From: Escherichia phage vB_EcoM_E9.1
Length of the DNA stretch: 64,000 nt
Direction: 5' to 3' (one strand)
Sequence record: PP886230
In this document: piece after piece, positions 54,120 through 54,887 of the stretch
Position numbering within the stretch: position 1 is the first letter of the stretch
Layout: each line of letters starts with the position of its first letter
Position numbers and translations under genes: made by a program
The notes under the pieces: generated by a model
What the model saw: the letters and a program-made list of their open reading frames with translations, nothing else
Told to the model about the DNA's origin: nothing
Database searches by the model: none

Positions 54120-54314
54120 ATGACTGACAAAACATTTTATGATCGTATTATTGAAGACAAGGGAGTTTTTGATAAGGTAGTTTATGACCTAGAACTTATG
54201 ATCAAAGACGCACCGAACCCCCGTGTGCGAACCCAAGCAGAATTTGCAAAAACTTATCTTGTTCAAGTTCAAGCAATCTGTGAAGCAATTAAAAAACACA
54301 ATGATAGTGCTTGA
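54120..54314 (+). CDS. Hypothetical small protein
   Basis: 64-aa ORF; its 3' end overlaps the -35 box of the downstream promoter. Confidence 0.5.
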   Translation: MTDKTFYDRIIEDKGVFDKVVYDLELMIKDAPNPRVRTQAEFAKTYLVQVQAICEAIKKHNDSA

Positions 54315-54339
54315 CAGAACTAATGTTCTATCCTATAAT
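54311..54339 (+). promoter_or_regulatory. Consensus sigma70 promoter TTGACA-N17-TATAAT
   Basis: ttgaca 54311-54316, 17-nt spacer, tataat 54334-54339; about 45 nt upstream of the IF3-like gene. Confidence 0.75.
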
Positions 54340-54383
54340 TACTATCGAACAAAACATTAAAATCATATTGGAGCTTTTATTAC

Positions 54384-54887
54384 ATGAAATCTATTATTGC
54401 CAATAACGAAATCACCGCAAAAACTGTACGTCTTGTTACGGAAGGTGCAAGTGAGGTCATGGCAATCTCTAAAGCACTTACTTTAGCAGAAAATCAAGGA
54501 TTGGATTTGGTGGTTATTGGTGTAGGTGATGAACCTGCTGTCAAAATTACAGATCTTAACAAATACAAATATGAGTTGAAGCAAGCTGAAAAGGCTTCTC
54601 TTAAAAAACAACGACAAAATGCCGTGAGTATTAAAGAGATTCAATTCAACTTTGGTACACAAGAGCATGATTTGCAGATTAAAGCAAAAAGTGCTGAAAA
54701 ATTCCTTGATGAAGGAAAACATGTACATATTGTAATGAAAACTTCAGGACGTGGAACTAATGCATCAGTAATTCAAGCAAATATTAATGCAATGGAATCA
54801 TTCGTTAATCGTTTGGGTAACGTTTCATATGTTCAAAAAGTCGAGTTCCAAGGTAAAAAGGTAACCTGTACTGTCAAAGTAAAATAA
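54384..54887 (+). CDS. infC: Translation initiation factor IF3 homologue
   Basis: [59 protein letters not shown]...[37 protein letters not shown] aligns along bacterial IF3 ([60 protein letters not shown]...[37 protein letters not shown]). Confidence 0.85.

Follow-up and report, generated by a model that had tools for sequence, protein, structure and literature searches.

Why does a bacteriophage carry a gene for translation initiation factor IF3, and what would the protein do once the phage is inside its host? We asked this of a 64,000-nt stretch of DNA from Escherichia phage vB_EcoM_E9.1 (PP886230; one strand, read 5' to 3'), which we call the window and in which one open reading frame (ORF) resembles bacterial IF3. 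From the core translation factors that a virus encodes one can learn which steps of host protein synthesis are limiting for a phage or threaten it, and this gene offers a handle on the question. The residues for contacts with the ribosome and the initiator tRNA have been kept, while the arginine that contacts the start codon has been lost and the gene lacks the autoregulatory AUU start, so a vague statement that the protein may help translation can be replaced by a testable hypothesis about one loop. We confirm that the ORF is a real two-domain phage homologue of IF3, as supported by sequence profiles, the predicted fold and conservation. That it is a phage form of bacterial IF3 which is functional and has long resided in the lineage, working by the steps set out below, we hold to have about an even chance of being right. 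Its most likely role, to judge from the sequence, would be to supply IF3 to host 30S subunits free of regulation, possibly with weaker proofreading.

An earlier note on this DNA had read the ORF as an IF3 homologue over both domains, and profile searches bear this out. Both Pfam domains are matched above their gathering scores, IF3_N at an expectation value (E) of 1.4e-15 (57.7 bits against 26.9) and IF3_C at E 8.2e-14 (51.8 bits against 34.8). The NCBIfam equivalog model TIGR00168 (infC) gives 108.7 bits for the phage protein against a cut-off of 60, with E. coli IF3 at 285.7, and PHROG 9787 ("translation initiation factor") aligns at full length, residues 1-167 falling on profile positions 1-167 of 168 (E 2.4e-70). 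In sequence comparison with the PDB, E. coli and Thermus IF3 chains are matched at about 1e-17, E. coli IF3 itself at E 4e-17.

The predicted structure agrees. An AlphaFold2 model built from an input alignment of 32 sequences has a mean predicted local distance difference test score (pLDDT) of 87 and consists of an alpha/beta N-domain, a long helix and a beta-alpha-beta-alpha-beta-beta C-domain. When the model was compared with the PDB by Foldseek, the top matches were all IF3: a B. subtilis IF3 model at a template modelling (TM) score of 0.79, 9ss1_F3 at 0.73, 30S-bound Thermus IF3 (5lmn_X) at 0.69 with E 1e-13, and E. coli 8jsh_A at 0.64, followed by mitochondrial IF3. As isolated domains, with TM normalised to the target, the 1tig C-domain reaches 0.84 and the 1tif N-domain 0.76. 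The model, which is predicted with confidence, thus superposes with its two-domain architecture on solved IF3 structures, including bacterial IF3 bound to the ribosome. Neither of the outcomes that the earlier note had named as refuting its reading, a lack of significant matches to IF3 models or an incompatible fold, was observed.

Over 2.7 kb around the gene, DNA identity is 99.9% with Escherichia phages slurp01, G17, Sharanji and Salmonella phage SD-2_S15, and 97.6% with phage 121Q. By its sequence the window phage belongs to the genus Asteriusvirus (121Q/PBECO4-like, Rak2-related jumbo phages of ~350 kb) and is not T4-type. In the Rak2-like group, IF3 is a conserved and annotated gene. A tblastn search found the gene in 94 phage records, among them RaK2, K64-1, GAP32, CBB, BF, Munch, XbC2 and Yersinia and Erwinia jumbo phages, with more distant matches in Atu_ph07 and Phosso. 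Annotations as IF-3 or infC exist for 121Q gp47, PBECO4, slurp01 infC, Sharanji gp294, RaK2 ORF153, GAP32_313 and CBB_318. The last has been described as IF-3 with homologues in GAP32, 121Q, PBECO4 and Rak2 (PMC5259590); Iyer et al. listed IF3 and a KTSC protein for group 2.2 jumbo phages (PMC7824862), and Al-Shayeb et al. in 2020 reported IF1 and IF3 among the translation genes of huge phages (PMC7162821). The authors of the Sharanji paper wrote that the function of the phage IF3 "cannot be definitively stated" (PMC11895373). Since the gene has already been annotated and discussed for the Rak2-like group, its presence there is known. The new point is that the loop with which bacteria check the start codon is changed across the phage clade, and what we add is the resulting hypothesis about that loop, together with a conserved unit of IF3, ClpS-like and KTSC genes.

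The gene has been in the phage lineage for a long time. A word-indexed search recovered 28 members of the clade, from 99% down to 46% identity, and then a gap before the bacterial-type IF3s; an exhaustive HMMER search returned 5567 IF3 relatives, six of them below E 1e-30. On TIGR00168 the Rak2-like clade scores 90-114 bits, compared with 155 for Atu_ph07, 195 for Phosso and 286 for E. coli IF3. The G+C content of the gene (~34%) is that of the phage DNA on either side, and pairwise ratios of nonsynonymous to synonymous substitution (dN/dS) among orthologues are 0.08-0.18 in pairs with unsaturated dS. On these sequence comparisons the phage IF3 genes make up a clade of their own, on which purifying selection acts. 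The best bacterial matches given by earlier annotators come from unrelated phyla (Megasphaera for RaK2, Hydrogenobacter for GAP32). We considered a recent capture from the host and rejected it, because there are no close bacterial homologues, the best matches are scattered over phyla and the G+C content equals that of the flanks. The divergence, the matching G+C content and the low dN/dS together indicate an old, selected resident of the phage lineage and not a recent enterobacterial acquisition.

The start-codon loop

We set the clade in one alignment with 114 representatives of bacterial-type IF3, all full-length, and called a position conserved when at least 70% of them agreed. The clade keeps 30 of the 34 conserved positions, including E. 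coli R25 (which is invariant), Y75, D106, K110, G132 and R133; at E. coli position 66 the phage protein has K, the commonest state. Equivalents are thus present at the positions for contacts with the 30S subunit and the initiator tRNA (R25, K at 66, Y75, D106, K110 and R133); the earlier note had proposed to check conservation at the 30S-contact positions. In bacterial IF3, R25 and R66 contact the elbow of the initiator tRNA (PMC9723500), Y75N is a fidelity and linker mutant, and K110L does not bind to the 30S subunit (PMC7145577). We also looked at Y107 (L in the phage), R112 (K), R116 (K) and R99 as possible signs of altered function and rejected them, since these are common bacterial states or poorly conserved positions.

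The difference that stands out is in the loop aligned with E. coli 129-RFRGRE-134. The bacterial-type pattern is [R/K]-F-[R/K]-G-R-E, whereas that of the clade is K-[T/A/I]-[V/A/S/T/I/Q/N/E]-G-R-[G...]. A basic residue stands at E. coli position 131 in 98 of the 114 bacterial-type proteins (86%) and in none of the 28 clade members (0/28); E at position 134 is found in 87/114 and not once in the clade, where F130 has also been replaced. Among the relatives, K at position 131 occurs solely in the most divergent, P0028. Elsewhere a basic residue here is not universal, as mycoplasma and mitochondrial IF3 do without it.

What this loop does in bacteria has been described (PMC11775629). The segment 129-RFRGR-133 is highly conserved, and at the start codon R131 touches nucleotides +2 to +4. 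The R131P change raises initiation from non-AUG codons, from leaderless mRNAs and with the 3GC-mutant initiator tRNA. When RFRGR was replaced by the mitochondrial KKGK in a reconstituted E. coli system, discrimination between AUG and GUG was relaxed and the inhibition of leaderless mRNA by excess IF3 was lost. A text search of the accessible literature for the motif string found it in two papers, neither of them on phages.

This pattern suggests, from the alignment, that binding to the 30S subunit has been kept while the loop that inspects the start codon has been altered. Given the loss of the basic residue at 131, codon-anticodon pairing is probably checked with less stringency by the phage factor than by that of the host, weaker proofreading being a plausible consequence of the loop change.

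Promoter, start codon and transcription unit

The earlier note had placed the gene 45 nt behind a textbook sigma70 promoter, described as the only fully consensus one found. The promoter is indeed an exact 12/12 match, at a distance of 44 nt from TATAAT to the ATG, and it has a twin elsewhere in the window (Table 1). Two exact TTGACA-N17-TATAAT sites were observed against 0.04 expected from dinucleotide-preserving shuffles, and seven sites with at most one mismatch, all on the + strand, against 1.57 expected. The second exact site lies within a coding frame (40433..41110), with the next start (41143) 228 nt downstream, and may be either an internal promoter or a match that arose by chance. The IF3 promoter is intergenic and is the sole exact match in the window positioned directly before a gene. 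The window as a whole is strongly biased in orientation, with 68 of 74 gene-like frames on the + strand, like the seven near-consensus sites.

At the matching position, a promoter of at least 10/12 is found in 15 of 18 related loci (17 loci plus Phosso), and the spacer and flanks have diverged. All 12 positions match in the window, 121Q, Sharanji, UE-S1, Ec-M-J, Ecwhy_1, fEgEco12, JNE01, Munch and CBB; 11/12 in A4, EJP2 and BF; 10/12 in RaK2, GAP32 and Phosso; and 9/12 in XbC2, Atu_ph07 and the metagenomic contigs P0028 and P0027. Hexamers that are kept while the spacer and flanks diverge are the pattern expected of a functional promoter.

A Shine-Dalgarno (SD) sequence GGAG precedes the gene and is found 7-12 nt 5' of the IF3 start in 14/14 relatives. 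The 5' untranslated region is predicted to be unstructured (-2.3 kcal/mol, z score +0.64). No Rfam family scored above its gathering threshold anywhere in the window, and on these two grounds we rejected a structured leader or known RNA element. The start codon is ATG in every Rak2-like phage, and GTG as annotated in Atu_ph07 and Phosso. The promoter, the GGAG and the canonical start are conserved over Asteriusvirus, Alcyoneusvirus, Mimasvirus, Eneladusvirus and phage Munch.

In E. coli, infC begins with ATT and lies between thrS and rpmI, as read from NC_000913. The AUU start of the host gene is the basis of IF3 autoregulation. Since the phage gene starts with AUG and not AUU, it should escape IF3-dependent autorepression.

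Two further elements near the promoter deserve mention. The promoter spacer contains an inverted repeat. Six Asteriusviruses keep its stem, the loop being TAAT, CAAC or ATTA, and the repeat is absent from JNE01 and EJP2. As ATTA is the reverse complement of TAAT, an inversion by hairpin template switching is suggested. We tried the palindrome as an operator or hairpin and leave both doubtful, since JNE01 and EJP2 lack it and other genera have unrelated short palindromes. Further upstream, a second sigma70-like site, TTGACA-N17-TATGAT at 54115..54143 (+), matches 11/12 and overlaps the start of the 64-aa ORF, its -35 hexamer being made of TTGAC and the A of the ATG. The TTGAC before that ATG is kept in 10/12 relatives. 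The -10 hexamer lies within the conserved codons F-Y-D, and its conservation may therefore be due to coding constraint. Should the site be real, it would be a tandem promoter feeding IF3.

Table 1. Features of the IF3 locus and one further promoter match, in window coordinates
Feature	Position	Strand	Details
Second exact TTGACA-N17-TATAAT	40886..40914	+	12/12; within a coding frame
64-aa ORF, no assigned function	54120..54314	+	Directly 5' of IF3; TGA stop (54312-54314) inside the -35 hexamer
Sigma70-type promoter of IF3	54311..54339	+	TTGACA 54311-54316, 17-nt spacer, TATAAT 54334-54339; 12/12 exact
Inverted repeat AGAAC-TAAT-GTTCT	54316..54329		In the IF3 promoter spacer; unique in window
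Shine-Dalgarno GGAG	54370..54373	+	10 nt before IF3 ATG
IF3 homologue, coding sequence	54384..54887	+	167 aa; ATG start, TAA stop
IF3 N-terminal domain	54402..54596	+	Pfam PF05198, residues 7-71; R16 = E. coli R25, K54 = E. coli R66
Lys-rich linker helix	54555..54620	+	Residues 58-79, DSSP helix H58-79 in model; Y63 = E. coli Y75
IF3 C-terminal 30S-binding domain	54624..54878	+	Pfam PF00707, residues 81-165; D96 = E. coli D106, K100 = E. coli K110
Start-codon loop K119-T-S-G-R-G124	54738..54755	+	Aligned with E. coli 129-RFRGRE-134
ClpS-like adaptor gene	54901..55446	+	181 aa; 13 nt past IF3 stop; Pfam ClpS E 2e-5, residues 74-144
KTSC-domain gene	55518..56063	+	181 aa; Pfam KTSC E 3.7e-14
529-aa gene	start 56035 or 56053, end 57624	+	Virion/structural protein in relatives
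263-aa gene	57624-58415	+	Virion/structural protein in relatives
Intrinsic-terminator-like hairpin	58420..58444	+	11-bp stem, then TTTTTTT; likely end of unit from IF3 promoter
Topoisomerase II large-subunit gene	58513..60477	+	3' of promoter-like site 58449..58478

On the + strand, no terminator-like site was found from the IF3 promoter to 58420. Given this and the short gap between the IF3 and ClpS-like genes, the promoter probably drives a unit of ~4.1 kb and five genes, and the ClpS-like gene is probably co-transcribed with IF3. The ClpS domain itself scores 24.7 bits, barely above the cut-off of 23, and the N-terminal extension of that protein (~73 residues) has no Pfam match. Phage A4 has two annotated coding sequences for the KTSC gene (L005 3629..4184), a 228-nt KTSC domain and a 336-nt 'structural protein', against a single gene of ~546 nt in other relatives; either a frameshift or a real split may account for this. 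Directly after the terminator hairpin there is a promoter-like site with a TG-extended -10, TTGAGA-18-TACAAT (58449..58478).

The order of genes is RNase H, Dda-type helicase, structural protein, an ORF of 64-66 aa, IF3, ClpS-like, KTSC, structural proteins and topoisomerase II. It is common to the window, 121Q, UE-S1, Ec-M-J, A4, EJP2, Munch, GAP32, CBB, XbC2 and BF, that is, to Asteriusvirus, Alcyoneusvirus, Mimasvirus, Eneladusvirus and phage Munch; in RaK2 a Mom-like gene takes the place of RNase H and the order is otherwise the same. The small ORF is present in every relative examined, with the motifs FYDRI and APNPRxRT, and the window copy has no match in Pfam. The central part of the locus is kept even in two metagenomic contigs whose IF3s are 46-54% identical. 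The IF3 genes of Atu_ph07 and Phosso come after a ClpX gene, with topoisomerase nearby. We also noted a bacterial contig (GCA_028279185.1) with a 217-aa IF3 outside the rpmI-rplT context and beside a ClpB/ClpC-type AAA+ gene. Adjacency of IF3 to a Clp gene thus recurs, with ClpS in the Rak2-like clade, ClpX in Atu_ph07 and Phosso, and a ClpB/ClpC-type gene in the one bacterial contig.

What the phage IF3 may do

Putting these features together, we propose the following steps. Host RNA polymerase carrying sigma70 would transcribe from the consensus promoter a unit in which IF3 is probably the first gene, followed by ClpS, KTSC and the two structural genes. Translation would begin from the unstructured leader with its GGAG and AUG, and the AUG start would let the phage protein avoid the autorepression that caps host IF3. 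The C-domain would then bind to the platform of the host 30S subunit, keeping subunits apart or recycling them, and the phage IF3 would promote 30S initiation complexes on phage mRNAs with canonical SD and AUG. A less stringent IF3 might speed the joining of 50S subunits on good SD and AUG sites while retaining its anti-association activity; this last is speculation.

Several observations weigh against this account, or against the part of it that concerns proofreading. The phage protein is very divergent (109 bits compared with 286 for E. coli IF3), and that it binds to 30S subunits of E. coli is an assumption. Eight different residues occur at position 131 in the clade, a variety as compatible with loss of constraint as with adaptation, and because the clade is monophyletic, the 0/28 count reflects one ancestral event. 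Sharanji (OR545507.1) encodes an RpoD-like sigma factor (21467..22432), and with a sigma70-like factor of its own the form of polymerase used, host holoenzyme or phage-modified, and the timing of expression cannot be read from the sequence. Our literature searches found no experimental study of any phage IF3. Nor is there visibly anything in the genome sequence that needs relaxed proofreading. The gene-like frames of the window begin with ATG in 69 cases and with GTG or TTG in 4 (~95% ATG), and 60/73 have an SD, although these are crude gene calls. The tRNA(CAU) of Sharanji has a G1-C72 pair, lacks three consecutive G-C pairs in its anticodon stem, and has a long variable arm.

We accordingly found no support for non-canonical start usage as the need that a relaxed IF3 would serve, given the ~95% ATG starts, mostly with SD. 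A phage-encoded initiator tRNA as its partner was rejected too, as no tRNA genes were found in the window and the Sharanji tRNA(CAU) is not an initiator. The latter is annotated as tRNA-Met(CAT) at 35374..35463 (-) of OR545507.1; it is 90 nt long, with a type II body and encoded CCA, and adjoins a 92-nt tRNA-Ser(ACT). A CAU anticodon on a type II tRNA is unusual.

We offer tentatively, as more probably wrong than right, a stronger version of the proposal in which the whole Rak2-like clade is a natural proofreading-relaxed IF3. Such a protein would have kept the core that binds the 30S subunit and tRNA, dismantled the R131/E134 loop and be expressed from a strong conserved promoter free of AUU autoregulation; it would outcompete host IF3 on 30S subunits and alter how fast or how stringently start sites are selected, possibly in concert with the ClpS-like and KTSC proteins. 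Given similar weight, and so likewise doubtful, is that the phage IF3 is an equivalent with full proofreading that simply raises the ratio of IF3 to ribosomes under host shut-off, the loop changes being compensated neutral drift. In favour of such a supplement, the conserved core and the fold are kept, K129, G132 and R133 are retained, and the related IF3s of Atu_ph07 and Phosso keep RFKGR. The phage genes have canonical SD and AUG, and excess wild-type IF3 is not inhibitory on SD mRNAs in vitro (PMC11775629). Drift accounts less well for a position that is basic in 86% of bacterial-type proteins and never in the clade, where F130 and E134 change jointly with it, and the loop changes that have been tested (R131P, KKGK) do relax discrimination.

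It is improbable, in our view, that the phage IF3 acts as a competitor that displaces host IF3 on the 30S subunit and biases initiation to phage messages or blocks host translation, in the manner of a dominant variant and not of a helper. The strong conserved promoter and the absence of AUU autoregulation would suit a competitor, as would the high divergence and the clade-specific changes in the loop at the decoding site. Interception of ribosomes has been proposed for the IF1 and IF3 of huge phages (PMC7162821), and a role in host takeover for Sharanji (PMC11895373). However, we found no signal specific to phage mRNAs, whose leaders are ordinary E. coli SD and AUG sites, and the protein, at 167 aa with both domains of canonical size, has no added domain or extension that could provide selectivity for mRNAs.

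Still less probable is that the protein reactivates ribosomes, freeing 30S subunits from HPF/YfiA and RbfA for growth in slow or stationary cells. Release of RbfA from mature 30S by IF3 needs Y75 and K110 (PMC7145577), which are both kept, and an HPF/S30AE homologue in relatives shows that the lineage manipulates ribosome hibernation; against this, the idea is purely inferential and host IF3 already does the job. A non-translational role in a module with the ClpS-like and KTSC proteins (targeted proteolysis, RNA binding), or a decaying relic, we consider very improbable: although the IF3-ClpS-KTSC order is kept down to 46% IF3 identity and IF3 adjoins ClpX in Atu_ph07 and Phosso, adjacency alone is no proof of physical partnership, the residues kept are exactly those for contacts with the 30S subunit and the initiator tRNA, and a relic is excluded by the strong purifying selection. 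As for packaging into the virion, IF3 is not named in the main text of the paper on the virion proteome of phAPEC6.

Comparison with known systems

The reading that we favour, in which host 30S subunits would receive an unregulated supply of an IF3 that may proofread less strictly, can be set beside several known IF3s. The IF-3 genes of Rak2-like phages (PHROG 9787) are the same gene, with 99.4% protein identity to 121Q, Sharanji and slurp01; the window protein has V48 where its close relatives have A, and nothing material differs. RaK2, GAP32, CBB and XbC2 are more distant, their IF3s being 52-69% identical to that of the window, with the same length, promoter and neighbours.

E. coli IF3 (PDB 8jsg, 8jsh) shares the two domains and the Lys-rich linker with the phage protein at ~30% identity. 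The 9-residue N-terminal tail of E. coli IF3 is missing from the phage protein, and while E. coli infC lies in the thrS-infC-rpmI-rplT operon, the phage gene lies in a replication module.

The fidelity-relaxed IF3s (R131P, KKGK, mitochondrial, and mycoplasma with P, F or Y at 131) have the loss of Arg131 in common with the phage IF3. The phage loop has small neutral residues there (S/T/V/A), in contrast to the Pro or the Lys-rich motif of the relaxed variants. Mitochondrial IF3 also has terminal extensions, which the phage protein lacks.

The jumbo-phage IF3s of Atu_ph07 (Agrobacterium) and Phosso (Sinorhizobium) resemble that of the window in lying near topoisomerase, beside a Clp component and behind a TTGACA-type -35. 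They are nearer to bacterial IF3 (155-195 bits on TIGR00168), keep DYGK and RFKGR, start with GTG as annotated and have ClpX and not ClpS as the neighbour. Finally, initiation factors occur in the >200-kb genomes of metagenomic huge phages, where they have been proposed to redirect host translation (PMC7162821). Those IF1 and IF3 genes belong to other clades and hosts; the 'uncultured phage' records LR756511 and LR756503 match the window IF3 at 38-42% identity.

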